Positions 2,124-62,306 of a stretch of 64,000 nucleotides of DNA are shown in pieces. The position numbers and the translations under genes are program-made. Positions within the stretch are counted from its first letter, which is position 1; the number at the start of each line of letters is the position of its first letter. This DNA is from Hyphococcus sp. (GTDB lineage Bacteria > Pseudomonadota > Alphaproteobacteria > Caulobacterales > Parvularculaceae), in contig NZ_OZ245810.1 in the NCBI RefSeq assembly GCF_965228385.1, forward strand, positions 1,075,565 to 1,139,564, given 5' to 3'. A model generated the notes under the pieces. It was not told where the DNA came from. It saw nothing but the letters and a program-made list of their open reading frames with translations, and made no database searches.

Positions 2124-3334
2124 CTTTTGTAACTCATCTGGAATGCACTGGAACAGGTAAGCATTATAAAGCCGGCCGTCCGCATAACCTTTCGGAAGCG
2201 GGCAAGCCGCTATTTGTGCGTTATGATCTGGAAGGCGTCAAAAACGCACTGAGTAAGGATGAATTGGCCGCGCGCACAAACGGTTTGTGGCGTTATCGTG
2301 AGTTCTTACCTGTGACCAATCCGGAAAATGAGGTTTCTCTGGGTGAGGTGATCTCACCGCTTTTCCGGCTGCGCAAGAGTGAAAAAAAGCTCGGTGTAAC
2401 AGGCGAGGTCTTGATCAAGGATGAAAGCCGCCAGCCTTCAGGTTCGTTCAAGGCGCGCGGTCTCGGCATGGCGGTTTCCATGGCCAAAGAATTTGGCTTG
2501 ACCCATCTGGCGATGCCAACGAATGGAAACGCGGGTTCGGCGCTGGCGGCGTATGCAACGCGCGCGGGCATTTGCTCTACCGTGTTGTGTCCTGACGACA
2601 CGCCGGAATGCCACATCAATGAAACGATATATCAGGGTGCTGACGTTTATCTTGTCAATGGGTATATAAACCATTGCGGCAGGATTGTCGCCGAAGGAAG
2701 AGAAAAAACCGGATGGTTCGACGTCTCTACGATGAAAGAGCCATATCGCGTCGAGGGTAAAAAAACACTCGGCATCGAAGTGCTTGAACAGCTCGGCTGG
2801 GAAATGCCTGACGCCATATTTTTTCCCACTGGCGGAGGGACCATGCCGATTGGGGTATGGAAGGCGTTTGACGAACTGGAAAAGATCGGCTGGATCGGTC
2901 CCGAACGGCCAAAAATGATTGTTGTGCAGGCTGCAGGTTGTGCGCCGATCGTTGAAGCCTGGGAAAGAAATGAAGCGCACGCGCGCGTCTGGGAAGAGGC
3001 GCATACAGCGGCCGCCGGCATTCGCGTGCCTGCCGCCGTCGGTGATTTCTTGATCCTCAACGCCGTTCGCAAGTCGAACGGTTTCGCCGCTGCTGTAGAC
3101 GAGGACGTCATTTTTGACGTCTGGCGCGACATTGGCCGCGAGGAAGGGTATATGCTCTGCCCTGAAGGCGCGGCAACTTTCGCAGCTTACCGTCAGGCGC
3201 TGCAAGAAGGACGAATAGATAAAACCGAACGCGTCGTGTTATTCAGCTGTGCGTCAGGTCTTAAATATCCATCGACAAGTGCTGTGAAAAATATAGATCG
3301 TCATCAGCCCGTTGATTTTAGCCGTTTCAAATAA
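2120..3334 (+). CDS. Threonine synthase-like PLP enzyme (fold type II), paralogue 1
   Basis: PSGSFKARG PLP-lysine motif, TNGNAG, EGKKT, PTGGGT, PEGAA. TTG start overlaps the TPR stop. Confidence 0.85.
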   Translation: MTFVTHLECTGTGKHYKAGRPHNLSEAGKPLFVRYDLEGVKNALSKDELAARTNGLWRYREFLPVTNPENEVSLGEVISPLFRLRKSEKKLGVTGEVLIKDESRQPSGSFKARGLGMAVSMAKEFGLTHLAMPTNGNAGSALAAYATRAGICSTVLCPDDTPECHINETIYQGADVYLVNGYINHCGRIVAEGREKTGWFDVSTMKEPYRVEGKKTLGIEVLEQLGWEMPDAIFFPTGGGTMPIGVWKAFDELEKIGWIGPERPKMIVVQAAGCAPIVEAWERNEAHARVWEEAHTAAAGIRVPAAVGDFLILNAVRKSNGFAAAVDEDVIFDVWRDIGREEGYMLCPEGAATFAAYRQALQEGRIDKTERVVLFSCASGLKYPSTSAVKNIDRHQPVDFSRFK

Positions 3335-3366
3335 ATTATACCGTAGCATGATTATATGAGGCCCCG

Positions 3367-4581
3367 TTGACTTTCATATCGCATCTTGAATGCTCCTATA
3401 CCGGAAAGAAGTATACTGCAGATATTCCTCATAACCTTTCAGAAGCGGGAAAGCCGCTTTTGGCGCGGTACGACCTTGACGCGGTTTCGTCGGCTTTAAC
3501 CAAGGAAATGCTGGGTGGGAGAAGCGAGGGTTTCTGGCGATACCGCGAGTTACTGCCGGTCTCCAAAGCGGAGAACCGGATTTCTCTTGGAGAAATCGTT
3601 ACGCCGCTTGTGAAATTGCCGCGCCTGGCGCAACGTTTGAATTTCTCAGGCGATTTAACCGTCAAGGATGAGGGGCGTTTGCCAACGGGCTCGTTCAAGG
3701 CCCGCGGCCTGGGGCTTGCCGTTTCAATGGCGAAAGAATTTGGTCTTGAGCATCTCGCCATGCCGACTAACGGCAACGCCGGGTCTGCGCTTGCCGCTTA
3801 CGCAAAGGCCGCTGGCATGCGCGCTACGGTTTTCTGTCCGGATGATACGCCGCGCGTGAATATTGATGAAATCGCTTTTCAGGGAGCAGATGTTTACTGC
3901 GTAAACGGGCTTATCGGAGATTGCGGCAAAATTGTCGGGGAGGGACAACGCGATGCCGGTTGGTTCGATGTTTCAACTTTGAAGGAGCCCTACCGGGTTG
4001 AAGGCAAAAAAACCATGGGGCTTGAACTCGCAGAACAATTTGGCTGGGAACTCCCCGATGCAATTTTTTATCCGACCGGCGGCGGCACAGGTCTTATTGG
4101 TATGGCGAAAGCGTTTGACGAACTGGAGGCTATGGGCTGGATCGGCTCAAAACGGCCGAAGCTCATCGTTGTTCAGGCTGCGGGGTGCGCGCCTATCGTG
4201 AAAGCCTGGCAAACCGGCGCGGAACATGCCGAGCCTTGGGAAAACGCACACACGGCGGCGGCCGGTATACGCGTTCCCGCCGCAATTGGCGATTTCCTGA
4301 TTTTGCGCGCTGTCCGCGACAGCAATGGATTTGCCATCGCCGTTGAAGAAGATGACATATTCGCTGCGCGTACGGAAGTTTCACAGTCTGAAGGCTTGCT
4401 CTTGTGCCCTGAAGGCGCAGCAACCTATGCCGCATTCAAGCAGGCGCTCGCAAAGCAATGGATATCGCCTGGGGACAAGGTCGTCCTGTTTAATTGCGCG
4501 ACCGGGTTGAAATATCCGATGACAGCGGCGCCCGCGACAATCGATAAGGATGGCGCTATTGATTTCAGCCGGTTTCGCTAA
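3367..4581 (+). CDS. Threonine synthase-like PLP enzyme, paralogue 2
   Basis: PTGSFKARG, TNGNAG, EGKKTMG, YPTGGGTG, PEGAA. Collinear with paralogue 1; GAGG RBS before a TTG start. Confidence 0.85.
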   Translation: MTFISHLECSYTGKKYTADIPHNLSEAGKPLLARYDLDAVSSALTKEMLGGRSEGFWRYRELLPVSKAENRISLGEIVTPLVKLPRLAQRLNFSGDLTVKDEGRLPTGSFKARGLGLAVSMAKEFGLEHLAMPTNGNAGSALAAYAKAAGMRATVFCPDDTPRVNIDEIAFQGADVYCVNGLIGDCGKIVGEGQRDAGWFDVSTLKEPYRVEGKKTMGLELAEQFGWELPDAIFYPTGGGTGLIGMAKAFDELEAMGWIGSKRPKLIVVQAAGCAPIVKAWQTGAEHAEPWENAHTAAAGIRVPAAIGDFLILRAVRDSNGFAIAVEEDDIFAARTEVSQSEGLLLCPEGAATYAAFKQALAKQWISPGDKVVLFNCATGLKYPMTAAPATIDKDGAIDFSRFR

Positions 4582-4608
4582 ATCCATTAAATGTTTCCGG
4601 AGAAATGA

Positions 4609-5262
4609 ATGTCTGTTCAAAACAAAGGACCGGACCCTTCCGCTGCCTATCCCATGCCCGGCGTCAAGCAGGTCGGATTTTTAAAGCCGCTGGTCGATCA
4701 TCCAATGATCGAAATAGGTGAATACACCTATTATGACGACCCGGCGGGGCCGGCGCATTTTGTTGAGCGCTGCGTTCGCTATCACTTTGAACATATGGGC
4801 GACCGTTTAAGAATAGGCCGTTTCTGCGCGATCGCGTCCGGTGTGCAATTCATCATGAATGGCGCCAATCATGCGCTGGAGGGTTTTTCAACCTACCCAT
4901 TCGCAATCTTCGGCAGCGGTTGGGAAGACGAAACCGCCGATTGGGCCAAAGGTTCGCGCGGCGACACCAACATCGGCAACGATGTCTGGATCGGAACTGA
5001 CGCGCTGATAATGCCGGGCGTTCGCATTGGCGACGGTGCTGTTGTTGGCGCAAGGGCGGTGGTCGCTGCGGATGTGCCGGCATATGGGATAGCTGTTGGG
5101 CATCCGGCGCGGACCAGAAAAAAACGGTTTGATGACAAGACTATTCGCAAGCTGCTGGAGTTGAAATGGTGGGATTGGCCGCCCGAAACGATCACCTCCA
5201 ATCTGTCCACCATCCGCGGCGGCAATCTTCAGGCGCTTTATAGCCTTGAAATCAAAGACTAA
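4609..5262 (+). CDS. Vat/CatB-family xenobiotic O-acetyltransferase (hexapeptide repeat)
   Basis: [21 protein letters not shown]...[13 protein letters not shown] and WWDWP motifs. Confidence 0.88.
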
Positions 5263-5425
5263 TTAAAGATCCGAATTGTTGGCTTCGACGTCGGTTGAAA
5301 AAATTTACTCCCCTATATCCCCTTACGACAAGTAGGTGAGTAATGGCACTATCCAGGAAAAGTGACGTTTCCCGAATCGCGCGCGGTCGAGTACCGTCTG
5401 CAACCGCGCAAATAAAGGTTCAGGT

Positions 5426-6082
5426 ATGGCCGAGGTTAAATGGCGGGCGGCTTGGCGATGGTTTGTGGACATCGCTATTGGCGAAGCCGTTTCGCGCCTT
5501 GTCAATTTCGGCGTCACAAACTGGCAATCCTTGGCCGGGGCATTCGCGGCGTTTGGTCTATCTTCAATGATAGACGGCGCTACTCTTTTTTGGATGTTCA
5601 TGGCGTTCCTTGGGGGCGGAACCTTGGTCGCCATTTGGCGAAACCAAGCGGTGCAGCGACAAATTTTGTACTCTCCGGAGCACAAGCTGCAAATTGGTCG
5701 GGCCGTTTTGGTCGCCGTTGAGCACAAACCTAACACATATCAACTAGGTATTGAGCTTTATAATGCTGGCAATTTCCCAGTATCAACAAAGGTTGATCGA
5801 ACATATGCGCAATTAGGCAAATCGACCGGCAATCCCGGTAAGCGCCTAAATGACGGCGCTGAAATTGCACCCAGACAAACCTCTGTTCTCTGGATGAGTG
5901 AGTATGAACTCGAAGAAAGAAAAAAGCCCTATAAAGGGAAAATTCACTTGGATATTAAGTATGGAAAAAAGGATAAAGAGCGGTATCCGCGCATTGTTTG
6001 GAGTCAGGTGGGTTTCCGCATCGACGGCTCGCCAGTTGTTCCCGTGAATGGAAGCCAAGTAGAACCTTTTGCGTTATCGTAA
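5426..6082 (+). CDS. Hypothetical membrane-anchored protein, IS passenger
   Basis: 218-aa ORF inside the IS, with an N-terminal hydrophobic segment and a beta-rich C-terminal part. AT-richer than the core genes. Confidence 0.7.
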   Translation: MAEVKWRAAWRWFVDIAIGEAVSRLVNFGVTNWQSLAGAFAAFGLSSMIDGATLFWMFMAFLGGGTLVAIWRNQAVQRQILYSPEHKLQIGRAVLVAVEHKPNTYQLGIELYNAGNFPVSTKVDRTYAQLGKSTGNPGKRLNDGAEIAPRQTSVLWMSEYELEERKKPYKGKIHLDIKYGKKDKERYPRIVWSQVGFRIDGSPVVPVNGSQVEPFALS

Positions 6083-6285
6083 TGACTAACACCATCAAGC
6101 AACGCTTTGACCGGCTTTTAAAGAAGATGGCGCACGGCGAACCGGCCTCGAAAACGCTTGCAAAAGGATCGGCAACATCAAGTGCGGCTGCTTCCGAAGA
6201 TTCCAGCGATACTCAAACTCACCGAGATAAACCGGCAGGTACTTCGGTGACATATGAACGTAAGTCCCGCGATAAGCGCCCTTAA
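6082..6285 (+). CDS. Small ORF (67 aa) antisense to the transposase 3' end
   Basis: ATG overlaps the passenger stop (TAATG). Begins MTNTIKQRFDRLLKKMAHGEP. Confidence 0.4.
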   Translation: MTNTIKQRFDRLLKKMAHGEPASKTLAKGSATSSAAASEDSSDTQTHRDKPAGTSVTYERKSRDKRP

Positions 6286-7021
6286 ACAGGTTCCAGAAGC
6301 CTTCGATGGTGTTCGTGTGCGTATCGCCGCGCGCGTATTCTTTTTTCGCGTGATTAATTGTTGAGTGACGGAAACCAAAATCATCAAGATTGTAGAATGC
6401 TTTTGCTTCGTCAGTGTTGATGTGCGTTCCCGGCTTAACGAAATGCTTGATGACCGGGCGAATGGCCTTGCGTCCCCGATGAGGAATGATCCACGTCATG
6501 ACGTTGCCGCCGCGCTCCGCCATGCCGAGAACGATAGACTTGTCGCCAACCGGGTCTTTTGCTCCCTTATCGACGCCGCCAATGAAAGCCTTATCGGCCT
6601 CGACAATCGGACCGCCTTTGCCGCCAAGGGGATCGGAGCCGTCAATCTCGCCCATATATTCGCGGATAAGCCGCGCCATGCGCCACGCCGTTTTGTACGT
6701 TACGCCTAGCTGGCGTTCCAATTCCTTCGCAGCGACGCCGTTGCGGCTGGCGCAGAACAGGAACATCGCGAAGAACCAAGAGTGGAGAGACGTGCGGGAC
6801 TTCTCGAAAGGCGTCCCGGCCTTGGGCGCAACCTGAAAGCCGCAATGCTCACAGGCGTACTGCTGGCGCTTTTTGATCCGGTAGTAGTGCGCCAGCTTGC
6901 CGCACCCTTGGCAGTCATGGCGCTCGCCGTACCGGGTGCGCATCAAATGCTCTAGGCAGGCGTCATCGTCCGGGAACTCATCGAGGAAGTCTTTGAAAGT
7001 AGGCAGTTTTTGCTTGGGCAT
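6095..7021 (-). CDS. IS1595-family DDE transposase
   Basis: Zn ribbon (CQGC...YACEHC), FEKSRTSL, VEAD, NTDE, HTNTIEGFW and YLGEFEYRWN motifs. Confidence 0.92.
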   Translation of the reverse strand: MPKQKLPTFKDFLDEFPDDDACLEHLMRTRYGERHDCQGCGKLAHYYRIKKRQQYACEHCGFQVAPKAGTPFEKSRTSLHSWFFAMFLFCASRNGVAAKELERQLGVTYKTAWRMARLIREYMGEIDGSDPLGGKGGPIVEADKAFIGGVDKGAKDPVGDKSIVLGMAERGGNVMTWIIPHRGRKAIRPVIKHFVKPGTHINTDEAKAFYNLDDFGFRHSTINHAKKEYARGDTHTNTIEGFWNLFKGAYRGTYVHMSPKYLPVYLGEFEYRWNLRKQPHLMLPILLQAFSRPVRRAPSSLKAGQSVA

Positions 7022-45817: not shown

Positions 45818-46753
45818 ATGCAGATAGACAGTTTGCGCGCCCATTTGCGCAGCCGGGTGGAAGACCGCCTCGACAGGGCCGCCAAGATTTATCTTGGCGA
45901 TCCCATGCTGGCGAAAGTCAATTTCGCCGAGCCGGCGGGAGAGCCGGCGCTTGTGGGGCCGGATTCAGTTTCCTGGCGGATTTTCAAAAATCCGGTGACG
46001 CTGTTTATCGGCGGCGTCGCCGCGGTCATTCTTGAATTCGCCGAACCGCGCGTGCGGTCAGGCGTGTGGGACAACACAAGTTTCCGGACGGACCCGGTGC
46101 GCCGGCTGAAGCGCACGGGGCTGGCGGCCATGGTCACTGTTTACGGCGCTCGAAGCGTTGCTGAAACGATGATCGCCGGGGTCAATCGCATGCATGCGCG
46201 CATCGCAGGCGAAACCCCGGAGGGAACGCCTTATACAGCGAGCGATCCTGAATTGCTGCGCTGGGTGCAGGCCACCGCCGCTTTTGGTTTCATGGAAAGC
46301 TATTCCGCCTACGCATCACCTTTAAGCGACGCCGACCGCGACCGGTACTACGCCGAAGGCCGGCCGGCCGCGCTGTTATACGGCGCGGCTGACGCGCCGC
46401 GCTCGCTGGCTGAGGAACGCGCGCTGTTTAAAGACATGCTGCCCGCCCTGGAAGCGTCTGGGATTATTTTTGAATTCCTATCGATCATGAAAAAGGCGGA
46501 AGCGTTTCCGCAGCCGGCGCAACTGGCGCAGCATTCGCTGGTGCGCGCGGCTGTCGACATCGTGCCTGAGGAAATCCGCCAAATTCTCGGTCTCACCGAG
46601 CGCCATGGGTTGCGACCGTTTGAGGGGCGCGTGGTGAAGCGCATGGCGCGCCGGGCCGACCGTCTGGTGTTGCGATCGAGCCCGGCGGCGCAGGCCTGCA
46701 AGCGTCTGGGGCTTGCAGCGGATTATCTGTATAGACCGCGTTATTCCGGCTGA
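45818..46753 (+). CDS. Oxygenase MpaB / DUF2236 family protein (start uncertain)
   Basis: SVSWRIF, GGVAAVILE, RRLKRTG, VNRMHARI and LRWVQATA motifs. Confidence 0.85.
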   Translation: MQIDSLRAHLRSRVEDRLDRAAKIYLGDPMLAKVNFAEPAGEPALVGPDSVSWRIFKNPVTLFIGGVAAVILEFAEPRVRSGVWDNTSFRTDPVRRLKRTGLAAMVTVYGARSVAETMIAGVNRMHARIAGETPEGTPYTASDPELLRWVQATAAFGFMESYSAYASPLSDADRDRYYAEGRPAALLYGAADAPRSLAEERALFKDMLPALEASGIIFEFLSIMKKAEAFPQPAQLAQHSLVRAAVDIVPEEIRQILGLTERHGLRPFEGRVVKRMARRADRLVLRSSPAAQACKRLGLAADYLYRPRYSG

Positions 46754-47889
46754 TCGCGCGGCGCCTTCCGCATCATTTTCACCCCGAACAGTTCTTCAGT
46801 GACGATCATTGCAGCAATATCGGCGTTCACCTCAGGATTGTTCGATGCGGTGAAAATGATCAGGCCGTGATCGGCGTAGTCGGTCCAGTTGGCGAAGAAA
46901 TTACCATTGCCGCCATTGTGCCAGTAGGACCGTCCAAAAAACGGATCTTCCATCACGACTAATCCATAGCCGTAATGGCCGGGCGCGTTTTCGCCTTCGC
47001 GCTGCATGGGGGCCTGCGCCAGTTCAACCGCTGCGGGAGAAACAATATCGCCGCCGGCGAATGCGCGCCGGAATTTTATCATGTCTTCAGCCGTGGCGAT
47101 CAATCCGCCGTTGCCGATCAGCGCCCAATGGGATTTACCGCCCCAGCTGCCTTCGGCGATGGCTTTTCCATCCTGCATGAGAAGAGATTTTCGGGCGTCA
47201 AAAGCCTTCTCATAGCCGACCGCGTCGACGCCCGCGCCTTTCAGTAACTCCTCGCGCAGAAACGCCTCATACGACTTGCCCGAAACCTGCTCGATAATGG
47301 CGGCGGCGAGGGAAAATCCTACATTGGAATATTCATACCCGCTTCCCGGTTCAAACAGGAGATCCGACGCCATGGCGCGGTTCAGGAATTCATCCCTGGA
47401 AAGAAATTCCAGATCTTCGCCGAGCGCGGGCGCAAAACCGGCTGAATGCGTCAGCAATTGATGGACCGAAATGTTGGCCTTGTCCGCCGGGGCGTCCGGG
47501 AAATATTTCGACAATCGATCCGCCATGGAAAGCTTGCCCTGATCCACAAGTTTGACCGCCGCCGCGCCGGTGAAGGTTTTTGTGATCGAACCGACGTCAA
47601 GAAGGGTGTCTTTATCAGGCAGCCCGTCTGCGGCGGCGTTCTCGCCAAAGCCGGCGTAAACCGGTGCGGCGCCGTCTTTTGCGAGTGCAATGACGCCGGT
47701 AAAGCCCATGTCTCTGAGCCTTTCCCCGGCGCTGTCAAATCCATCGCTGATCTGGACGGCTGTCGGGGTGGAAAGCGGCTGCGCATGGGCGGGCGCGCAC
47801 AGCGTCAGCAGCGCCACAGCGCAGCATGAGATTTGGCGAATGCGGCGCGCGGTGAAGCGAATAGTGTTTGTGTTGTAGATGAACGTCAT
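46741..47889 (-). CDS. Serine hydrolase (beta-lactamase fold)
   Basis: GSITK, LLTHSAG, YSN and HNGG motifs. Confidence 0.88.
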   Translation of the reverse strand: MTFIYNTNTIRFTARRIRQISCCAVALLTLCAPAHAQPLSTPTAVQISDGFDSAGERLRDMGFTGVIALAKDGAAPVYAGFGENAAADGLPDKDTLLDVGSITKTFTGAAAVKLVDQGKLSMADRLSKYFPDAPADKANISVHQLLTHSAGFAPALGEDLEFLSRDEFLNRAMASDLLFEPGSGYEYSNVGFSLAAAIIEQVSGKSYEAFLREELLKGAGVDAVGYEKAFDARKSLLMQDGKAIAEGSWGGKSHWALIGNGGLIATAEDMIKFRRAFAGGDIVSPAAVELAQAPMQREGENAPGHYGYGLVVMEDPFFGRSYWHNGGNGNFFANWTDYADHGLIIFTASNNPEVNADIAAMIVTEELFGVKMMRKAPRDQPE

Positions 47890-47978
47890 TTGGATAAAGT
47901 CCTTCGATTAGTTACACTTGTCGCGTTTTGCACCGATGCGGACGTGGAAAGCCTGAAGAAAACATTTCGAGATATGTC

Positions 47979-48590
47979 ATGTCCCTCACGCAAACGACGA
48001 AGCATCCTTCTGATCCCGCTGAAAACTGCCACATCCGGCTTGGCGCGGCGACCTACGATCCGAAATTGCGCATTGTGACGGCGAATGGCGGCGCGCAGCC
48101 GCTGGAGCCAAAATTGGGCGAGTTACTTGTGCTCCTGGCGACATCAGACGGTCCCGTTTCCAGGGACGCGTTACTGGACCGTATCTGGGGCGATGAAGGC
48201 TCGGACGAGGCGCTGACGCAGGCGGTTTCGAAATTGCGCCGCGCATTGGGGGATGTGAACAGGCCCTACGCCATCATCCAGACTGTTCCGCGTTATGGAT
48301 ATCAAATCGGCAATGGCATTGCTGTTCCTGTCCACTCAGTCGAAGCGGCGGATGATTCGCGCAGTATCACATCGGGTTTGCGTGCGCATGTGAACAGGCG
48401 CCGCGAGTTTTACTTTGGCGCGCTTTGCGGCGCCGGGCTAGTTATCGTCGCGGTTGCGATTTTGGTGCTGCTCAATCCGCCAAGGCTCCTTGAAAAGGAA
48501 GTTATCTGCGGGGAGGGCGTATCGGCGGCGGATTGCGTGACGACCATACGAAGCGGGTCGGACAGCCCTGGCGGCAATCGCATCGATTAA
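47979..48590 (+). CDS. Membrane-anchored winged-helix regulator (CadC/ToxR-like)
   Basis: LEPKLGELL...SRDALLDRIWG...LTQAVSKLRRAL...TVPRYGY, then one TM helix and a short tail. Confidence 0.85.
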   Translation: MSLTQTTKHPSDPAENCHIRLGAATYDPKLRIVTANGGAQPLEPKLGELLVLLATSDGPVSRDALLDRIWGDEGSDEALTQAVSKLRRALGDVNRPYAIIQTVPRYGYQIGNGIAVPVHSVEAADDSRSITSGLRAHVNRRREFYFGALCGAGLVIVAVAILVLLNPPRLLEKEVICGEGVSAADCVTTIRSGSDSPGGNRID

Positions 48591-49138: not shown

Positions 49139-49264
49139 AGCGAATTCCTTTGATCCCGCCTTCTACTAACCCGGCCCATTTAAAGCGGTTCCGAACATCG
49201 CTATTTGCGCCCCGCGCCCAAGCGGATTAAGGATGCGGCGCATTCAAAGCCTTCACGGATTTCC

Positions 49265-52009
49265 ATGACCGCCATTACCCCTGAAATTGTCGCCGAGCAT
49301 GGCCTCAAGCCCGAAGAATACGAGCGTATCAAGACACATATGGGCCGCGAGCCCAATCTGGTCGAGCTTGGCGTCTTTTCGGTCATGTGGTCGGAGCATT
49401 GCTCGTATAAATCATCGCGCCGCCACCTGAAGAAACTGCCGACCTCCGCGCCATGGGTTGTGCAAGGTCCGGGCGAGAACGCAGGCGTCATCGATATCGG
49501 GACGGATAATGACGGCGTCCCGCTGGTGGCGGTCTTCAAGATGGAGAGCCACAACCATCCAAGTTTCATCGAACCCTATCAGGGCGCGGCGACGGGCGTC
49601 GGCGGCATCATGCGCGATGTCTTCACCATGGGCGCGCGGCCCGTGGCCAATATGAACGCGCTGCGCTTCGGCGAGTGGGCGCACCCCAAAACCCGCCATC
49701 TCGTGGCTGGCGTTGTCGGCGGCATCGGCGGTTACGGCAATTGCATGGGCGTGCCGACCGTCGGCGGCGAGACCAATTTCGACGCCGGCTATAACGGCAA
49801 TATTCTCGTCAACGCCATGACCGTGGGCGTTGCAGAAAAAGCGAAGATTTTCTATTCCGCCGCGCGCGGCGCCGGCAATCCTGTCGTCTATGTCGGATCG
49901 AAAACCGGGCGCGACGGCATTCACGGCGCCACCATGGCGAGCGCTGAATTCGACGACGCTTCGGAAGAAAAGCGTCCCACCGTGCAGGTCGGCGATCCGT
50001 TTACGGAGAAATTGCTGCTCGAAGCGTGTCTGGAGCTCATGGCGTCCGACGCGATTATCGCCATTCAGGACATGGGGGCGGCGGGCCTCACATCCTCTTC
50101 GGTTGAAATGGCGGCGAAAGGCGGGGGCGGTTTTGAGCTTGACCTCGACCACGTGCCCCAGCGCGAAGACAACATGACAGCCTATGAGATGATGCTGTCG
50201 GAAAGCCAGGAGCGCATGCTCATGGTGTTAAAGCCGGGCCGCGAAGACGACGCGCGCGCCATCTTTGAAAAATGGGGCGTCGATTTCGCGGTGATCGGCG
50301 TGACCACGGATACGGGGCGGCTGGTCATCATGCATGAGGGCGAGACCGTCGCCGACATGCCGGTGCCGCCGCTGGCGGACGACGCGCCGAACTATGACCG
50401 CCCGCATGAGCCGGCCCCGAAGCCCGCGCCGCTGGACGATCCGAAAGTCTCCTATCGAGAGGCCGAAGCGATTTTGAAATCGCCCGGCAAGTCGGAAGAG
50501 GAAATGCGCAATGTGGCGCGAACCCTCATCGATGACCGTCTCGCCGATCCTGATCTTGTCGATGCGGTGGGCATGACGGCGCAGGCCGGCGAGGCGCGGG
50601 TCTATGTGCGATCCGGGCCCGAGGGCGTCAGCTTCTCCGGATTTGAAGAAGCCGTGCGCAACCTATCGTCGGGCGGTGTCGTTGAAACGACCGAAGTCGA
50701 ACAGCGCGAGGAAACCTTGTCGCTGGCGGAGGCGCCGGGCGGCGACACCATGCTGACGGCGCTTGCGAAACTTGTCGCGTCGCCCGATCTGTGCTCGCGC
50801 CGGTGGATATGGGATCAGTATGATCACACGGTGATGGGCGACACGGTGATCCACCCCGGAGGCGACGCTGCTATTGTGCGCGTGCACGGAACAAACCGCG
50901 CGCTCGCCATAACAACCGATGTGACGCCGCGTTATGTGAAAGCTGATCCGCATGAGGGCGGCAAACAGGCGGTGGCGGAAACATACCGCAATATCTGCGC
51001 AACCGGCGCCGCGCCGCTGGCGATCACAAACTGTCTTAATTTCGGCAATCCGGAACGCCCGGAAATCATGGCCCAGTTTGTCGGCGCCATTGAGGGCATG
51101 GCGGAAGCCTGCGAGGCGCTGAATTATCCGGTGATTTCCGGCAATGTCTCGCTCTATAACGAAACCAACGGCGCCGCGATTCCGCCAACCCCGGCCATTG
51201 GCGGCGTCGGCGTTCTGGAAGACGCCACGAAAGCCTGCCGGGTCGGCGGCGCGGAAGCCGGCGAGGAACTGCTCGCCATCGGCGTGACGCGCGGATGGCT
51301 CGGACAGTCAATTTACATGCGTGATCTTTTCGCAATTACGGACGGCGCGCCGCCGCCGGTTGACCTGGAGAGCGAACGCAAGACCGGTGAACTTGTCCGT
51401 AAGCTGATCAGCGAAGGGCTGGTCACCGCATGTCATGACGTATCGGACGGCGGATTGCTGATCGCGGCGGCGGAAATGGCGCTGGCTGCAGGCAGGGGCT
51501 TAAACCTGACGACGCCGGTGAAGCAGCGCAAGGCCGCCTTCTGGTTCGGCGAGGATCAGGGGCGCTATCTTGTGGCCGCCGCGCCCGCCGCCGCCGACAC
51601 GCTTTTGTTGAAAGCCGCCATGGCGGGCGTTCAGGCGTCGAAGATCGGCCGTTTCGGCGGTCCCGACCTGACGCTGGACAGCAATGATTCGCTCTCATTG
51701 CTTGATTTATCTGATATTTTTGAAGCCGCCCTGCCAGATTACATGAACGCCCAGACGAAAAAGGAGCCCGCCCCCATGCCTATGGCCGGAGACGACATCA
51801 AGAAACTCATTCTCGACGCGCTGCCCGACGCGGAAATTGAACTGGAGGACCTTGCCGGCGACAATGACCACTGGCGCGCGCGCATAATCTCATCGGCGTT
51901 CAACGGAAAGTCCCGCGTTCAGCAGCATCAGTTGGTCTACAGAGCATTGAAAGGCCGCATGGGCGGCGAGCTTCACGCCCTCGCGCTGGAGACGGAGGCG
52001 CGGGAGTAG
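49265..52009 (+). CDS. purL: Phosphoribosylformylglycinamidine synthase subunit PurL, in frame with BolA
   Basis: [37 protein letters not shown] and HDVSDGG motifs. PurL homology ends near 51751 and the frame continues into BolA. Confidence 0.92.
51776..52009 (+). CDS. bolA: BolA/IbaG-family protein, nested in frame at the end of the purL ORF
   Basis: Own AAGGAG RBS at 51761-51766. MPMAGDDI...DLAGDNDHW...[14 protein letters not shown]...LHALAL. Confidence 0.88.
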
Positions 52010-52033
52010 GTTCAAGCGGCAAAGGGGAGACTA

Positions 52034-52585
52034 ATGTTCAAACTTAAACGGCTAGCGATAAAAACAGCATTTGTATTGCTCGGCGTGCTTTGCACATTGG
52101 GTTGCGCAAGGAGCGCGGCAGAGAACGATATTCACGATGACATCGATGCGGTCATCATCAATCTTGAAAGCGCCTGGGCGGCCGCCGACGGCGAGGCGTG
52201 GTCTGATCAGTTCACCGACGACGCTGACTTCATAGTCTGGTTCGGGCTGCGCCTGCACGGCGCAAAGGAGATCGGCGATGGCCATCAAGGCATCTGGGAC
52301 GATTTTTACGCCGGAACGGTTTTCGACCTTGAAATAGAATCTGCGCGCCTGATCGCTGACGGCGTTGCAATTGCGCATCTGGATGGCTGGATTTATCGTG
52401 CAGGTGAATCTCGTCCGCAAACGCCTGCCGTTTCGAAGCCGATAGTCGTTTTGGCGCAAACCGAACGGGGCTGGAAAATTGAAGCCTTCCAGAACACGCC
52501 GGGCTTTGGCCCTCAATGTTTCGGCAACGAACTCGCTGATGTCGTTGCGCGCGGCGGCTGCGTTGCGCCCGGCGGCGGGGAGTGA
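52034..52585 (+). CDS. SgcJ/EcaC (SnoaL-like) family exported protein
   Basis: WAAADGEAWSDQFTDDADFIVWFG and GWKIEAFQNT; signal peptide. Confidence 0.8.
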   Translation: MFKLKRLAIKTAFVLLGVLCTLGCARSAAENDIHDDIDAVIINLESAWAAADGEAWSDQFTDDADFIVWFGLRLHGAKEIGDGHQGIWDDFYAGTVFDLEIESARLIADGVAIAHLDGWIYRAGESRPQTPAVSKPIVVLAQTERGWKIEAFQNTPGFGPQCFGNELADVVARGGCVAPGGGE

Positions 52586-52598
52586 CACGCCCAGCGGG

Positions 52599-52688
52599 CA
52601 GCAGCTTCAGTTGGTCTACAGAGCATTAAAGGGCCGCATGGGCGGCGAGCTTCAAGCCCTGGCGCTAGAGATGGCGGCGCGGGAGTAG
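52599..52688 (+). pseudogene. Duplicated 3' 90 bp of bolA
   Basis: 82/90 nt identical to 51920-52009, including the stop codon. No 5' part or start. Confidence 0.9.
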
Positions 52689-52793
52689 TGGGCTTTGGGT
52701 CCGGTTAAGGGGCCACTTTCGTTCTTCAGGCCTTTGCTAGCGGATGGCCGAAAATCGCCCTCGAAGTGGACGGTCGAGGCCGACGTGCATCTG

Positions 52794-53153
52794 TCAAATC
52801 GCGGCGCCCTCAAATTCTCCGAGCTTCATTACATGATTTTCCAGGAATTTGTCACGAAGGTTTTGCCGCAAAACGCGAAATTTGCCGCCAACTAAAGTGA
52901 CCGAACTATTTGGGAGACGCGCAAATGCATAGGACGCGTTCGGAGGGATAATTACATCGCGCCCGTTCACGAGAGACTGAAACGCATCCGTATCATCGTT
53001 CGCGCCGTTTCCCCACAGCACAGGGACATGTGCTTTTGCCCCGGCTGGAATTGTCACAGATGAGGCGATTGCGGTCGCGAGAAATGCCCGTCTCGAAAAT
53101 GCAATCAACTCCGAATCTCCGTCCGCAACACCTACTGAGAATTGCTGCATCAA
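52794..53153 (-). CDS. Hypothetical or fragmentary ORF with a Tat-like signal and a GxxDDT motif
   Basis: SRRAFLATA and LWGNGANDDTDAFQ. Confidence 0.4.
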   Translation of the reverse strand: MMQQFSVGVADGDSELIAFSRRAFLATAIASSVTIPAGAKAHVPVLWGNGANDDTDAFQSLVNGRDVIIPPNASYAFARLPNSSVTLVGGKFRVLRQNLRDKFLENHVMKLGEFEGAAI

Positions 53154-53243: not shown

Positions 53244-54044
53244 ATGAACCGCCTAAGAAATGATCACCTCTATATGATGCCTGCCCATTTTGGGGGAAAA
53301 CCGGGAGGTATGACGGCGACAACCTATCATGACACGGTGAGCGCCACCATCCGATACGAAACCGATCAAGACGCACTCGAAGCGCTGATACCAGAAGGTT
53401 TTGAACTTCGTTCTGCGGAGATTATGGTTGCCGCAATGATGAATAGAGGCGTGGAATGGATGGCGGGTGAGCCCTATAACATCGTCGCAGTGAATGCGCC
53501 GGTGCGATACCGAAAAGCATCACCAAATATCGATGGCTGGTATTCATTGGTTGTATGGGAAAACAAAACCACGCCGATTCTTCCCGGCCGGGAACAAACC
53601 GGTATTCCCAAGATTTATTCGGAAATTGAAGAATTTCGGTTCCTCGGCGATGAGATGCGCACTTGGGCGCATTACGGCGGCCATAGTTTTTGCGACCTAC
53701 ATTTTTCGAATATCCGCGAAGCCAGCGCTGATGAGCGGCGCCAAGTTGATGATGAGTTTCGCACAATGAACTGGATGGCATGGCGCCATATTCCCAAACC
53801 GGGCGAAGGCGGCGGTGCATCGTTGTCCGAAGCGACCCTGTTTCCGCAAGAATTTGAAAGCAGTCGGGTAAGGCTAGCAGATGCAAGCTGCGTCTGGTCA
53901 ACGCCGCCCTTTTGGAAAAACCCAATTCAGGCCCATATCATTGCGCGCCTTGAATCTTTGCCAATCGTTTCGCCTGTTGGGCCAGCAATAATCATGAATG
54001 CAAAGAATATATTGCGCGGCGATCTAGCGAAGCTGCTCGATTAG
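53244..54044 (+). CDS. Acetoacetate decarboxylase family protein
   Basis: YMMPAHFG, YETDQDALEALIPEGF and PILPGREQTGIPKIY motifs; GGAG RBS. Confidence 0.8.
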   Translation: MNRLRNDHLYMMPAHFGGKPGGMTATTYHDTVSATIRYETDQDALEALIPEGFELRSAEIMVAAMMNRGVEWMAGEPYNIVAVNAPVRYRKASPNIDGWYSLVVWENKTTPILPGREQTGIPKIYSEIEEFRFLGDEMRTWAHYGGHSFCDLHFSNIREASADERRQVDDEFRTMNWMAWRHIPKPGEGGGASLSEATLFPQEFESSRVRLADASCVWSTPPFWKNPIQAHIIARLESLPIVSPVGPAIIMNAKNILRGDLAKLLD

Positions 54045-54083: not shown

Positions 54084-54158
54084 TCATGACCACAAAATCA
54101 AAATGATGAACATGGCAATCGGCGCGGCGTAACGGATGAAGAACCGCCATTCGCGGAA
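54084..54158 (-). pseudogene. Diverged duplicate of the NSS transporter 3' coding segment
   Basis: Translates FREWRFFIRYAAPIAMFIILILWS* against FRYWRFFIRYAAPIAVFLILILG in the intact gene. 54115-54149 matches 55460-55494 at 33/35 nt. Confidence 0.85.
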
Positions 54159-54322
54159 GCGGCCGCAACGCGTATACACATTTTTTCCACCGATGACCTG
54201 CATAAACGCGCGCATCGCGGGCTGAGGTTCCATAGTCGGTGATCCGTTGCTTTATTGCGGCGATCCGGCTTGCTTGCACGGCGTTCCATAGGTCAAAAAG
54301 TTCACGTAAAGAGGGGATAGAT

Positions 54323-55387
54323 ATGAGACACGGCGCAATTGCGTGTGCAGGCCTGGTCCTGCTGGGCTGCGGCGCAGAAAACGCCGCGCCGCCGGCGCGG
54401 CGGCCCGCGCCAGACATACCGGCGCTTATGGCGGCTGCGAATGCGCCCGGCCTGTCGATCGCAACGATTGACGACTGTGAATTGTCGGATGTCTCCCATT
54501 ATGGCGTTGCGGATATCGAAACCGGCGAGCCGGTTGACGACACCACCCGATTTGAGGCCGCATCCTTGACCAAGACGATCTTCTCGCTGATTGTTAATCA
54601 GCTTGCGGATGAAGGCGTGATTGATCTCGATCATCCGATCGCCGACAATTTTGATTACCCGCGTGTGACCGACAAGGACGCCTATGCGGTTTTGACCCCC
54701 CGCATGATTTTAGCGCACAGGTCCGGTTTGCCGAACTGGGCGGGCGATCCGCTCGACGCGGAAACCTGGGGCGACATTCCCTTCAACAACCCGCCCGATA
54801 CGCAGTTCGGCTATTCCGGCGAAGCCTATCAGCTGCTTCAGGCCTATGTTGAGAACGTCACAGGAAAGTCTCTCGATGTTCTGTTCGCAGAACGCCTCGG
54901 CGATTTAATGCCGCTTTCTTCCTTGTCGGTGGCGAGAGAGGACGCAAGCCCGAGTTTTGGCCATGACAAAGACGGCGGCAAGGAAAAAGGCCGCGCCATT
55001 GGCGAACTGACCAGCGCGGGCGCCGCATATTCGGGGCAGAGCAACGCGCGCGACTATGCGCGGTTTCTCAGTCATCTGTGTGAGGGCGCTGGCATGAGCG
55101 CCGATGCGCGCGATGCGATGCTGGAGCCGCAATCCCCGACTGACGCGCCTGAAATCGCGTGGGCGCTTGGCTGGGGCGTGCAGACGGGCGAAAATCCTGT
55201 TTATTTCCATTGGGGCGACAATGGACCGTTCAAGGCGTTTACGGCGTTCAACCGGGAAACCGGCGACGGCGTCGTTTATTTTGCCAACGCCATGAACGGG
55301 CTGATGCTGATCGAACCCATCGCCGCTCCGGTGGTGGGCGATGTCGGCCCGATCGTTGACTGGCTTGATTACGGACGGGTCGACTAG
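54323..55387 (+). CDS. Serine hydrolase lipoprotein (beta-lactamase fold)
   Basis: Lipobox LLGC; ASLTK, HRSGLPNW, YSGE and HWGDNG motifs. Confidence 0.88.
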   Translation: MRHGAIACAGLVLLGCGAENAAPPARRPAPDIPALMAAANAPGLSIATIDDCELSDVSHYGVADIETGEPVDDTTRFEAASLTKTIFSLIVNQLADEGVIDLDHPIADNFDYPRVTDKDAYAVLTPRMILAHRSGLPNWAGDPLDAETWGDIPFNNPPDTQFGYSGEAYQLLQAYVENVTGKSLDVLFAERLGDLMPLSSLSVAREDASPSFGHDKDGGKEKGRAIGELTSAGAAYSGQSNARDYARFLSHLCEGAGMSADARDAMLEPQSPTDAPEIAWALGWGVQTGENPVYFHWGDNGPFKAFTAFNRETGDGVVYFANAMNGLMLIEPIAAPVVGDVGPIVDWLDYGRVD

Positions 55388-56745
55388 CCGCCCGACAACA
55401 TTGCGTTCAACCCAAGCTGAAACTTTGCGTCGATTCCCAGAATTAAAATCAGAAACACCGCAATCGGCGCGGCGTAGCGGATGAAAAACCGCCAGTATCG
55501 GAAAACGCCGTCGCTCGTATTGTGCAGTTCCCCGCGCATGATCGCGCGCGGCACGATCCAGCCGGCGAAAATGGCGACGAGCAATCCGCCGAGCGGCAGG
55601 AAAACGCTCCCTGAAAAAAAGTCGAGCCAGTTCCCGAGACCGCCGATATAGATCGTCATGGCGCCGATGACCCACGCGATAAGTCCGAAAATTATCGCGG
55701 ACGATGTACGCCCGAGGCCGAGCTGATCTTCGCCGACCGAAGACGTCACCAGCAATAGCGATATGGACGATGTCAGCGCCGCGATAAAAGCGAGAAAGAA
55801 GAACAGCCCGCCGATAAGCGCGCCGGCCGGCATGCCGGAAAAAACTGCGGGCAGGGCGTTGAAAATCAGCCCCATGCCCGCGGCGGGATCCAGCGCATAA
55901 GCAAATACGACCGGAAATATCATCAGCCCGGCGACGATGGCGACGAGTGTATCGGCCCCGGCGATGACAGCGGCGTTGTCGCCGATATTTTCGGTTTTGG
56001 GCAGGAATGAACCATAGGTCATCATGATCGCGCCGCCGACGCCGATGGAAAAGAACGCCTGTCCCAGCGCGGATAAAACGATGCCCGGCGTGATTTCCGA
56101 AAAGCGCGGCGAGAAGAGGTAATCGAATGCCTGGCCCGCAGCCCCTGTCATCAAGGCGTAAAGGCTGAGGCCGATCAGCATCAGGAAAAAGATCGGCATC
56201 AGGATTGTCACCACGCGCTCGATCCCGCCTTTCAGGCCGCGCGTAACGATAAAAATGGTGAGCCCCATGAACAGCGTGTGCCAGAACAGCGCCATGCCGG
56301 GGCCGTTATAAAGGGAAGTTGCAACGGCCGCGTCCGCCGCCGAGCGCCCGGCGAATTCACCCATGAAAGACATCAGCGAATAGGCCATCACCTGCCCGGC
56401 GATCACGCTGTAAGTTGTCAGAACGAGAAAAGCTGCGAGCACGCCTGCCAGCCCGACGACAAGCCAGCCGGGAGATTTCCCGATATCGACGGCAAGCTGT
56501 TTCGTGCTGCCGACCGCCGACAAACCCTTGTGGCGGCCGATGGCGAGCTCGCCCATGAGGATCGGGTAGGCGATAAAGGCGACGCAGATGAGATAGACGA
56601 AAACAAATGCGGAACCGCCGTTTTGTCCGGTTTGAAACGGAAACCGCCAGAGATTGCCAAGACCGACGGCGGAACCGATCGCCGCCATCAAAAATGCAAA
56701 ACGTGACGACCATTGTGGCGTGACGCCGCCGGTTGGACCTGCCAT
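55384..56745 (-). CDS. Sodium-dependent transporter, NSS family
   Basis: WSSRFAFLMAAIGSAVGLGNLWRFP, GQAFFS and FLAFIAALTSSIS motifs. Confidence 0.93.
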   Translation of the reverse strand: MAGPTGGVTPQWSSRFAFLMAAIGSAVGLGNLWRFPFQTGQNGGSAFVFVYLICVAFIAYPILMGELAIGRHKGLSAVGSTKQLAVDIGKSPGWLVVGLAGVLAAFLVLTTYSVIAGQVMAYSLMSFMGEFAGRSAADAAVATSLYNGPGMALFWHTLFMGLTIFIVTRGLKGGIERVVTILMPIFFLMLIGLSLYALMTGAAGQAFDYLFSPRFSEITPGIVLSALGQAFFSIGVGGAIMMTYGSFLPKTENIGDNAAVIAGADTLVAIVAGLMIFPVVFAYALDPAAGMGLIFNALPAVFSGMPAGALIGGLFFFLAFIAALTSSISLLLVTSSVGEDQLGLGRTSSAIIFGLIAWVIGAMTIYIGGLGNWLDFFSGSVFLPLGGLLVAIFAGWIVPRAIMRGELHNTSDGVFRYWRFFIRYAAPIAVFLILILGIDAKFQLGLNAMLSGG

Positions 56746-56906
56746 GAGACCTCTCAAAAATAGCGCTGCGCGGTTTGCGCGTTTTTTCGAATTATACGTG
56801 TTTGCAACCGGCGCGAATAGCCGCGCCGCCGCCTGATTTCGCCCGCGTCTTGCTACGCGCATGCGGGGCGCCTAATGTGCGCGAAAATCCAATATGAGGT
56901 ATTCCC

Positions 56907-58832
56907 ATGAGTTTACGCGCCGCTGCCCTGGTTTTTTCGCTTTCCGCCCTTGCCGCCGGTTGTTCCCGCGATGGCGGCGACGCGGAGAGGGAGCCGGTAA
57001 GCGATGAGCCTGGCGTGGAGACGGAGGCTCACTGGTCGCCGGTCCCGGCGGATGAGGTGCGTGATCCGTTTACCTACTCGAACTATCACGAAGCGCGGGT
57101 CACCCATGTGGAGCTCGATCTCGATGTGGATTTTGAGACGAAAACCCTGTCCGGTTCGGCGCAACTGGATTTTGAAAAATTAAGCGACGATGTTTCCACG
57201 CTTGTTCTCGATGCGAATGATCTCGATATCGAACTCATTGAGGCGGAAACTGACGACGGCTGGGTAACGGTCAGCTATGAAATCGGCGCCGACGACGCTG
57301 TTATGGGGTCGCGTCTCGCCATAGAATTGCCGGACGGCGCTGAATCGGTTCGTGTCAATTATTCAACAAGTCCGGATGCGGAAGGCATACAATGGCTTTC
57401 GCCGGAACAGACAGCCAGCGGCGAACATCCATTCCTGTTTACGCAGTTCCAGCCGCTGCTGGCGCGCACCATGGTTCCCTTGCAGGACACGCCCGCCGTG
57501 CGCATCACCTACGACGCCCGTATCACGACGCCGCCGGCGCTGCTCGCCGTGATGAGCGCGCGCCAGGATGAAAGCGGCGAACGCGACGGCGATTATTCAT
57601 TCAGGATGTCGCAGCCGATTCCGTCTTATCTTCTGGCGCTGGCGGTCGGCGATATTCAGTTCGAAGCGATCAGCGCCGATGTCGGGGTTTATGCGGAAGA
57701 TTATATCGTCAGCGAGTCCGCGGCGGAGTTCGAGGATACGCCGCAAATGGTCGATACGGTGGAGGCGCTTTATGGCCCCTATCGCTGGGGCCGCTACGAT
57801 CTGATTGTGCTGCCGCCGAGCTTTCCGTTTGGCGGCATGGAAAACCCGCGGCTGTCTTTCATGACGCCGACGCTGATAGCGGGCGATAAAAGCCTCACCA
57901 ATGTTGTTGCGCATGAACTGGCGCATTCATGGTCCGGGAATCTGGTGACCAATTCCACATGGCGCGATGCATGGTTGAACGAAGGGTTCACCAGCTATGT
58001 TGAAAACCGGATCATGGAGGGCCTTTACGGCCCGGAGCGCGCCGTGATGGAGCGCTCGCTTGATAAGCAGAGCCTGATGCGCGACGTCAACGAGGCCGCG
58101 CGTCCGGAACTGACGGCGCTGAAAATGCCGGAAGACATCTCCCATCCGGATGAGGCGTTCAGCCAGGTCTCCTACGCCGGCGGCATGTTCTTCCTGAAAT
58201 TTATGGAGGAGCGTTTCGGGCGCGAAGCCTTTGATGCGTTCCTGCGCGATTATTTCGACAGATTCGCGTTTCAGAGCATCACGACGGAAGATTTCCTCGC
58301 CTATTTTGAAGATCATCTCTGGGCGGATCAGCCCGATGCGGTGACCAAGGCGGAGATTGACGCCTGGGTTTATGAACCGGGTTTTCCGGACACGATTGAA
58401 AATCCGCAGTCCGACGCCTTCAACCGCGTGGAAAGCCAGCTCAACGCCTGGCTTGGCGGCGGCGATGTGGCCGGTCTGGAAACCGGCGCATGGACGACCC
58501 ATGAATGGCTGCACTTCATCAGCGTATTGCCTGCGGAGATTTCGTCCGAGCAGATGGCGGCGCTGGATGCGCGGTTTAATCTTTCAACGTCGCAAAATGC
58601 GGAGATCGCAAGCGCCTGGTATCTGAAAGCCATTCCCGCCGGCTATGAACCCGCGTTCGAGCCGCTTGATGCTTTCCTGATGCGGGTCGGGCGGGGCAAA
58701 TTTATCTATCGCCTGTATCAAAGCCTTGCTGATAACGGCCGTCGCGAATGGGCCGAAGCCGTCTATGAACGGGCGCGCCCCGGTTACCATCCGATCGCGC
58801 AGCGCCGTATCGACGAGATTTTCGGCGAATAA
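56907..58832 (+). CDS. M1-family aminopeptidase (LTA4 hydrolase-like) lipoprotein
   Basis: GGMENP, HELAH...WLNEG and VGRGKF motifs. Confidence 0.93.
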   Translation: MSLRAAALVFSLSALAAGCSRDGGDAEREPVSDEPGVETEAHWSPVPADEVRDPFTYSNYHEARVTHVELDLDVDFETKTLSGSAQLDFEKLSDDVSTLVLDANDLDIELIEAETDDGWVTVSYEIGADDAVMGSRLAIELPDGAESVRVNYSTSPDAEGIQWLSPEQTASGEHPFLFTQFQPLLARTMVPLQDTPAVRITYDARITTPPALLAVMSARQDESGERDGDYSFRMSQPIPSYLLALAVGDIQFEAISADVGVYAEDYIVSESAAEFEDTPQMVDTVEALYGPYRWGRYDLIVLPPSFPFGGMENPRLSFMTPTLIAGDKSLTNVVAHELAHSWSGNLVTNSTWRDAWLNEGFTSYVENRIMEGLYGPERAVMERSLDKQSLMRDVNEAARPELTALKMPEDISHPDEAFSQVSYAGGMFFLKFMEERFGREAFDAFLRDYFDRFAFQSITTEDFLAYFEDHLWADQPDAVTKAEIDAWVYEPGFPDTIENPQSDAFNRVESQLNAWLGGGDVAGLETGAWTTHEWLHFISVLPAEISSEQMAALDARFNLSTSQNAEIASAWYLKAIPAGYEPAFEPLDAFLMRVGRGKFIYRLYQSLADNGRREWAEAVYERARPGYHPIAQRRIDEIFGE

Positions 58833-61973: not shown

Positions 61974-62306
61974 ATGACCGACGCCGCACATGCCGATATC
62001 AAGTCGAAAATCGACGCCAACCCGGTAATGGTTTTCATGAAAGGCACGCCGCAATTTCCGCAGTGCGGATTTTCCTCGGTCGTCGTCCAGATTCTCGACC
62101 ATCTCGGCGTGGATTATGGTTCCGCGAATGTGCTTGAATCCGACGACTTGCGTCAGGGCGTCAAAACCTTTTCTGACTGGCCGACAATTCCCCAGCTTTA
62201 TGTGAAGGGCGAATTTGTGGGCGGCTGCGATATTGTCCGCGAAATGTTCGAGCAGGGTGAATTGCGCGGATTCCTGCAGGAAAAAGGCGTTCCGGTCGCA
62301 GCCTGA
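61974..62306 (+). CDS. grxD: Monothiol glutaredoxin (CGFS)
   Basis: [22 protein letters not shown] and GGCDI motifs. Confidence 0.96.

Follow-up and report, generated by a model that had tools for sequence, protein, structure and literature searches.

The stretch of 64,000 nt analysed here (the window) lies in a genome of Hyphococcus sp. (G000; 3,756,164 bp) and carries the genes purL and bolA, followed by a gene for an SgcJ/EcaC-like protein and a partial second copy of the bolA 3' end. We propose that this second end is the scar of a recombinase-free, homology-anchored gene capture that consisted of one homologous exchange in bolA and one illegitimate joint, and we give this reading a probability of about 0.62. 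Recombinase-free capture had been suggested in an initial annotation of the window. It fits the repeat, its decay, the empty site seen in the pair of relatives G008 and G011, the recurrence of such scars, and the lack of recombinases; a second, mirror-image capture proposed at the same time did not hold. Positions are given in window coordinates unless genome coordinates are named. G000 was compared with about 50 species genomes of the same genus, and family-level protein searches covered 150 genomes.

The duplicated end of bolA

Intact bolA (51776-52009, plus strand) consists of 77 codons and a TAG stop, and its product matches the Pfam family BolA with 48.9 bits. As the initial annotation had counted, the final 90 nt of the gene (51920-52009) recur at 52599-52688 with exactly eight substitutions, four synonymous and four non-synonymous. 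A repeat search and a register alignment extended the direct repeat to 98 nt. Its first copy (51912-52009, plus strand) is the functional bolA 3' end, and its second (52591-52688, plus strand) is a bolA 3' remnant that includes the TAG and is identical to the first at 87 of 98 positions, with 11 differences. Both copies terminate at the TAG and the sequences past it are unrelated, while on the left side the similarity is lost gradually, within about 8 nt. When the whole 3,756,164-bp genome was compared with itself by BLAST, the pair had E = 5.8e-26 and is therefore not due to chance. A weak terminator-like hairpin (52698-52714; GGTCCGG...GGGGCC, then a T-rich tail) lies 10 nt past the remnant stop and may be the original bolA terminator.

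The remnant is a decaying pseudogene. The C-terminal 29 residues of BolA are nearly invariant in 20 species of the genus; the intact gene encodes this invariant C-terminus and the remnant does not. We compared the intact copy, the remnant and G042, the closest relative at the bolA locus. The remnant has five changes that neither the intact copy nor G042 shares, which we read as decay; four of these are non-synonymous and fall on genus-invariant residues (H to L, H to Q, T to M, E to A). Its reading frame is still open, and it remains 89% identical to the intact copy. At three sites the remnant agrees with G042 and the intact copy differs, and all three are synonymous (TTA, AAG, CTG); at three further sites G042 differs from both G000 copies. 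Once decay is set aside, the two copies look like slightly different alleles, and these three sites weakly suggest that the remnant carries the resident-like one. This lends a little weight to the earlier proposal that an old 3' end was left behind.

The repeat copies bracket exactly one gene, as first noted. This gene (52034-52585, plus strand) encodes an exported SgcJ/EcaC (SnoaL/NTF2-like) protein of 183 aa, which scores 73.3 bits against TIGR02246 (cut-off 33.95), has weak Pfam matches to DUF4440 and SnoaL_2, and starts with a hydrophobic N-terminus ending ...LGC. From its stop to the start of the remnant there are only 5 nt (joint J1, 52586-52590), read directly from the sequence as a novel, illegitimate junction. 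Orthologues with 73-77% nucleotide identity are the immediate successors of bolA in G053 and G001; in G020 one other gene stands in between. In G053 and G001 the gene follows bolA without any remnant, and this order plausibly represents a donor-type arrangement. The sequence 3' of the SgcJ-like stop is unrelated in these three genomes. Exact-protein look-ups with the SgcJ-like protein, and with the acetoacetate-decarboxylase (ADC)-family protein encoded further downstream, found no other assembly.

Relatives show the site in other states. The bolA 3' end was matched in about 41 genus genomes, and a second copy was present in three of them (G000, G008 and G017). Most relatives thus have a single bolA end, the state that the initial annotation had asked about for strains lacking the cargo. 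A full tandem duplication of bolA, named there as the finding that would speak against capture, was looked for, and none of the about 41 genomes with a match has a full second bolA. In G011, purL-bolA runs uninterrupted into the next gene, so that the site is empty. In G008, the bolA end is duplicated over 54-57 nt around a 476-bp insert (43% GC) whose one ORF encodes a small membrane protein, and the distal bolA copy continues collinearly into the resident gene downstream. The two genomes represent the states before (G011) and after (G008) such an insertion.

No recombinase was found by Pfam among the called genes from 43.3 to 62.3 kb, pepN (56907-58832) being left out; these genes encode ordinary metabolic, transport and regulatory proteins. 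The nearest match in G000 to PF00589 (n=12) or rve (n=3) is at a distance of more than 260 kb; serine recombinases and further transposase families were not part of this genome-wide search. Seven inserts were examined with Pfam and NCBIfam, and none contains a recombinase. The earlier statement that no integrase or transposase lies nearby is therefore borne out by these scans. Rfam gave 0 RNA families within 51.5-55.6 kb.

To the left of bolA, purL (49205-51775, plus strand; from the ORF list, with Pfam AIRS, AIRS_C and FGAR-AT linker domains) forms the conserved flank on the left, where homology presumably anchored the exchange, and it is 78-83% identical at the nucleotide level to purL of all genus relatives. 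purL and bolA form a single open reading frame of 934 codons (49205-52009) without an intervening stop, and bolA has its own ATG at 51776. A beta-lactamase-fold serine hydrolase gene (46741-47889, minus strand; Pfam, 167 bits) lies 1.3 kb upstream of purL, adjoined by a gene for a winged-helix regulator (47928-48590).

The interval from the bolA remnant to pepN

Across the genus, the purL-bolA segment is 75-95% identical and the sequence past the bolA stop is unrelated between species, so that a homologous anchor exists on one side only. Synteny maps of more than 25 species showed that the genes after bolA differ in nearly every species, and that the interval between the conserved flanks holds different whole genes without mobility genes. 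It is a genus-wide hypervariable interval that starts at the bolA stop and ends at a variable right neighbour, which is SNF, pepN or a point towards grxD. The glutaredoxin gene, the usual successor of bolA, is 10 kb away in G000 (61974-62306).

Beyond the bolA remnant of G000 lies an inner block of two genes. The first, orf119 (52794-53153, minus strand), is a gene of unknown function called from its ORF and codon score. It has a weak sub-threshold Pfam match to DUF4232, no NCBIfam match, and no nucleotide match among 49 genus genomes. The second is the ADC-family gene (53244-54044, plus strand; Pfam ADC, 103 bits). The 150 family genomes contain only paralogues of its product with 26-31% identity; metagenomes gave at most 41% over a near-full-length match, and 45-55% in two partial matches on cut contigs. 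Judged by these matches, the ADC-family gene is foreign to the family. The GC content of the inner block is 50-52% vs 57-65% in the flanks. A donor arrangement of bolA, orf119, ADC and SNF was searched for in the 150 family genomes and in metagenomes and was not found.

The inner block is followed by a remnant of the 3' region of an SNF (sodium:neurotransmitter symporter family) transporter gene (54093-54213, minus strand), identified by repeat search and by alignment with eight SNF 3' ends. It is without the canonical last 17 codons. Its segment 54093-54175 is about 76-77% identical to 55438-55520 in the intact SNF gene of G000 (55384-56862, minus strand; Pfam SNF), and the alignment can be extended to 54213 through a 9-nt indel. 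The intact gene has the canonical C-terminus that is common to G006 and G007. The remnant agrees with the intact SNF gene of G000 at 64 of 84 positions and with that of G006 at 69 of 84, and the two intact genes agree with each other at 68 of 84. The remnant is as diverged from one as from the other, which means that the two SNF copies of G000 have separate lineages of origin. It probably represents the cut-off end of a block that was imported earlier and contained orf119 and the ADC-family gene.

The right-hand boundary of this import (joint J2, 54214-54243) is bracketed by the end of the SNF homology and the start of homology to a G042 spacer. From there, a spacer (54244-54322, plus strand) leads to a beta-lactamase-fold serine hydrolase gene (54323-55387, plus strand; Pfam Beta-lactamase, 142.9 bits). 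In G042, bolA is followed by a 113-nt spacer, the beta-lactamase-fold gene, the convergent SNF gene and pepN. Positions 54244-54316 of G000 align with the G042 spacer with a local score of 17.5, which was reached by 0 of 300 shuffles, and the homology runs nearly to the position of the bolA stop. A third, older bolA remnant beside this spacer was considered and rejected, its score having been reached by 21 of 300 shuffles.

The metagenome-assembled genome L067 is collinear with G000 over the beta-lactamase-fold gene and SNF, and a beta-lactamase-fold gene follows bolA in G042, L067, L068 and G001. Because of the collinearity with SNF in L067 and G042, and because the G042 spacer has been kept in G000, the beta-lactamase-fold gene is ancestral and not cargo. 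The initial annotation had seen the same footprint again about 1.5 kb downstream. The SNF remnant on which this was based is present, but the beta-lactamase-fold gene, taken there as cargo between the remnant and the intact SNF gene, is resident and the mirror-image capture falls. The retained spacer also means that, relative to G042, the whole of 52010 to about 54243 is an insertion at the bolA stop; it comprises the SgcJ-like gene, the bolA remnant, orf119, the ADC-family gene and the SNF remnant. The right-hand flank consists of SNF and pepN (56907-58832). The SNF transporter itself belongs to the flexible content, since it is absent from the bolA-pepN interval in five genomes (G001, G002, G012, G020 and G024). 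In G014 (locus L024, oriented 2722-6395), this interval holds two SNF genes, one of them with a short C-terminus (...GLTSH*).

The history that follows is inferred in its direction of transfer and its layer order, as is the way in which the DNA entered the cell. In an older event, a fragment with purL', bolA', orf119, ADC and the 3' part of SNF' from an unsampled member of the genus would have been exchanged in purL/bolA, and its truncated SNF' end would have been joined to the resident spacer at J2 with a loss of at most about 25 nt of spacer. This would be textbook homology-facilitated illegitimate recombination (HFIR). In a newer event, DNA of a related lineage resembling G053 or G001, with a bolA'' end and the SgcJ-like gene, would have been exchanged homologously in purL/bolA, and the other end of the donor DNA would have been joined illegitimately at J1, 98 nt inside the resident bolA. 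The outcome would be an intact, partly imported bolA, then the new gene, then the old 3' end, which is now decaying. The interval would thus have grown in layers beside the bolA stop, with the SgcJ-like gene as the newer layer and the orf119-ADC-SNF' block as the older one. This order fits the state of the two remnants, because the bolA remnant (89%, frame open) is less decayed than the SNF remnant (76%, with an indel).

The two joints differ in form. J2 shows a small deletion (at most about 25 nt), and J1 shows the 98-nt duplication instead. For J1, HFIR of a linear fragment and a Campbell-type single crossover of a recircularised fragment that contained the last 98 nt of bolA could equally account for it and would leave the same anatomy; a direct duplication of the homologous segment that brackets the whole insert, as found at J1, is the Campbell-type expectation. 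A single circular import of the inner block was rejected on grounds of topology, as the SNF remnant would then precede the bolA remnant, whereas it in fact follows it.

The events may also have run in the opposite direction by the same class of mechanism. The SgcJ-like gene would then be resident, and the bolA remnant would be the truncated left end of an imported block with a bolA' end, orf119 and ADC, anchored homologously at SNF/pepN and joined illegitimately just after the resident stop. Adjacency of bolA and the SgcJ-like gene occurs in four species and could be vertical, and the order bolA, SgcJ-like gene and, further on, beta-lactamase-fold gene is common to G001 and G000. The remnant directly adjoins the low-GC foreign block, and G053 has only about 80 nt from the SgcJ-like stop to pepN, which would explain the 5-nt joint. 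We nevertheless consider this direction unlikely. Since the G042 spacer is retained, DNA anchored at SNF/pepN would need to carry the spacer, the beta-lactamase-fold gene and SNF as well; the remnant has the G042-like, that is resident-like, alleles; and a second event would still be required for the SNF remnant. No recombination tract was detected in purL/bolA, SNF or pepN, where all relatives are only 75-83% identical and the genus is star-like.

Recurrence of the scar and site-specific alternatives

A genome scan for triplets of core gene, cargo and 3' remnant, as suggested in the initial annotation, was run on 3320 genes called by a codon-usage model, with the last 150 nt of each gene compared with the surrounding 10 kb. 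Opposite-strand matches served as the control, and none exceeded 40 bits. Same-strand matches were mostly tandem paralogues, and only a handful were scars. Clean cases of an intact gene, cargo and an intergenic 3' remnant were found at bolA, at the SNF gene and at a gene for a dehalogenase-like alpha/beta hydrolase. Scars of this type are not the product of a pervasive process in G000.

The hydrolase gene (genome coordinates 1,165,388-1,166,314) is core in the genus and adjoins a variable region. In G000 its remnant is 59 nt long with 85% identity, and the cargo is a TetR regulator and two small genes (locus 1,163,647-1,166,314; L048). The same gene has been struck in G006 (L062), where the cargo is 2.3 kb with an amidohydrolase and two NTF2-like proteins, and in G043 (L063), where it is 0.56 kb with a membrane ORF. 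In these three species the remnants lie 0.6-2.4 kb downstream of the gene. Two small scars were also seen in G000 (genome coordinates 1,569,586-1,570,995 and 1,471,667-1,473,298). In one, 27 nt from the end of a 155-aa gene recur 921 nt downstream, with one gene in between. In the other, 113 nt from the end of a 129-aa gene recur at 96% identity and are fused to a different ORF of 83 aa.

All remnants are short (27-121 nt), and in three of the five same-orientation cases (G000, G006 and G043) the cargo stop lies within 5 nt of the remnant. The short length would be survivorship if long repeats have been collapsed by RecA and their cargo deleted. The tight fit of the cargo stop may reflect later deletion of useless spacer, limited by the gene under selection, or a narrow intergenic window for a viable joint.

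Recurrence at the same two core genes in different species could also indicate an att-type element, that is, a small mobilisable cassette with the bolA 3' end as attP and an integrase that acts in trans or has since been lost. Integration of this type had been the alternative offered by the initial annotation. The anatomy resembles that of icd and icdC around e14 (PMC13626634), and the cargo genes leave almost no gap before the remnant. The left edges of the three hydrolase remnants lie at similar positions (-75 to -88), closer together than those of the bolA remnants. The latter are at -98 (G000), -57 (G008) and -45 (G017), three different edges that show no common crossover core.

Genuine islands of G000 provide a further measure. 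Those at tRNA-Tyr, tRNA-Thr and tRNA-Gly (genome coordinates 807,162-816,275, 3,408,946-3,422,433 and 3,504,967-3,510,816; low GC3) are 5.8-13.4 kb long, are flanked by 36-56-nt repeats of the tRNA 3' end with 92-100% identity, and have kept their integrases. The bolA scar is unlike them in repeat identity, length and integrase retention, and the repeats of the scars are only 77-89% identical. The cargo is different each time, the inserts share no sequence, and G053 and G001 carry cargo after bolA without an attR-like remnant. These points, together with the recombinase searches of the seven inserts and of G000 (PF00589/rve, none within 260 kb), disfavour att-type integration, which we hold to be quite improbable. 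An integron was considered for a 125-nt repeat array at 3.728-3.740 Mb of G000 and rejected, because its repeats are not attC sites but conserved 5' ends of paralogues arranged in tandem. The array (genome coordinates 3,727,511-3,739,900, minus strand) contains about 15 genes of about 250 aa at a spacing of about 750 bp, whose first approximately 125 nt are 80-93% identical and the rest diverged.

It is conceivable, at a similarly low level of credence, that units of a core-gene 3' end plus one or more genes are self-perpetuating, integrase-free cassettes. RecA recombination between the intact 3' end and the remnant would excise a circle with one repeat and the cargo. After spread by a gene transfer agent or transformation, this circle would re-insert by a single crossover in the conserved 3' end of the same core gene of another species. 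The conserved gene end would then be a portable, homology-based attachment site, and this would account for repeated hits on the same two genes, for cargo stops so close to the remnant and for the shortness of the repeats.

Least credible is an event in situ, either tandem duplication of the bolA end with deletion and decay or an assembly artefact, even though an 11% difference between copies is reachable by neutral decay for bolA alone: the homology ends exactly at the stop, where a deletion would have to start in several species, and the SNF copies are as diverged as those of different species, which rules out tandem duplication plus deletion; no relative has a full second bolA; G008 and G011 show that insert and duplicate belong together; and an artefact is unlikely, since 11 differences in 98 nt cannot come from collapsing or mis-joining one locus and analogous scars are present in the assemblies of other species.

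The proposed capture by homology at one end and its meaning

Several observations weigh against homology-anchored capture. No donor and no conspecific cargo-less strain was found, and the proposed direction and layer order would rest on the three synonymous sites and parsimony. Classical HFIR yields a deletion and not a duplication, and a joint that lies 98 nt within the homologous segment has to be treated as an exception. With only 45-98 nt of sequence at roughly 90% identity, a single crossover would be inefficient. A cargo stop at most 5 nt from the remnant in three cases is tighter than random joints predict. Finally, the divergence of the copies could be reached by in-situ duplication and neutral decay for bolA, less so for SNF.

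The process closest to the proposed capture is HFIR together with single-crossover integration, described for Acinetobacter baylyi, Pseudomonas stutzeri and Streptococcus pneumoniae and tested in E. coli (PMC3240628). With DNA that had homology on one side, 56 of 60 integrations in E. coli took the route in which the molecule first recircularises and then enters by a single crossover, with 109-950 bp at the end of the homologous gene duplicated; true HFIR in E. coli gave an insertion together with a deletion (PMC3240628). The likeness lies in the combination of one homologous exchange within a conserved gene with one illegitimate joint and no dedicated recombinase, in inserts of about 0.5-2.3 kb, in the duplication of a gene end around the insert, and in J2, which resembles classical HFIR with a small deletion. 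The present case differs in being natural and fixed, in a marine alphaproteobacterium, and in that several species show it at the same two core genes; its duplicates, moreover, are only 45-121 nt long and diverged. Our literature search found little on natural HFIR scars.

Two other systems share part of this anatomy. The minimal mobile elements of Neisseria (Saunders & Snyder 2002; Snyder et al. 2007, as described in PMC3787668) are different whole-gene cassettes without mobility genes that lie between conserved genes and are exchanged by recombination in the flanks. They are similar in their fixed flanks, variable whole-gene content and lack of mobility genes. Their exchange is by double homologous crossover and leaves no scar, whereas here at least one illegitimate end has left a partial copy of the flank. 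The content at bolA would have been added in layers rather than swapped, and our comparison is between species and not strains. In E. coli, e14 and phage 21 integrate in icd, and the icdC 3' pseudogene is left at the far side; e14 is 15 kb long with its own integrase and a fixed crossover site, (Hill et al. 1989, as described in PMC13626634). The parallel with bolA is that incoming DNA supplies the 3' end of the intact gene and the old 3' end becomes a diverged pseudogene beyond the insert. At the scars described here, the inserts measure 0.5-2.3 kb, no recombinase accompanies them, and their edges vary. The bolA locus is most likely a natural example of a known process and not a new kind of element.

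Capture by HFIR or single crossover is well studied in the laboratory and seldom documented as fixed events in natural genomes. The cargo at bolA is ordinary accessory metabolism, namely an SgcJ-like protein, an ADC-family enzyme and a serine hydrolase. The scars also offer a search rule: where an intergenic region contains a short and diverged copy of a core-gene 3' end, this copy tells where an acquisition ends and how old it is relative to others. The layered, datable scars, their empty-site comparator in a sister species and their return at two core genes show how hypervariable islets between core genes can grow without the machinery of mobile elements.

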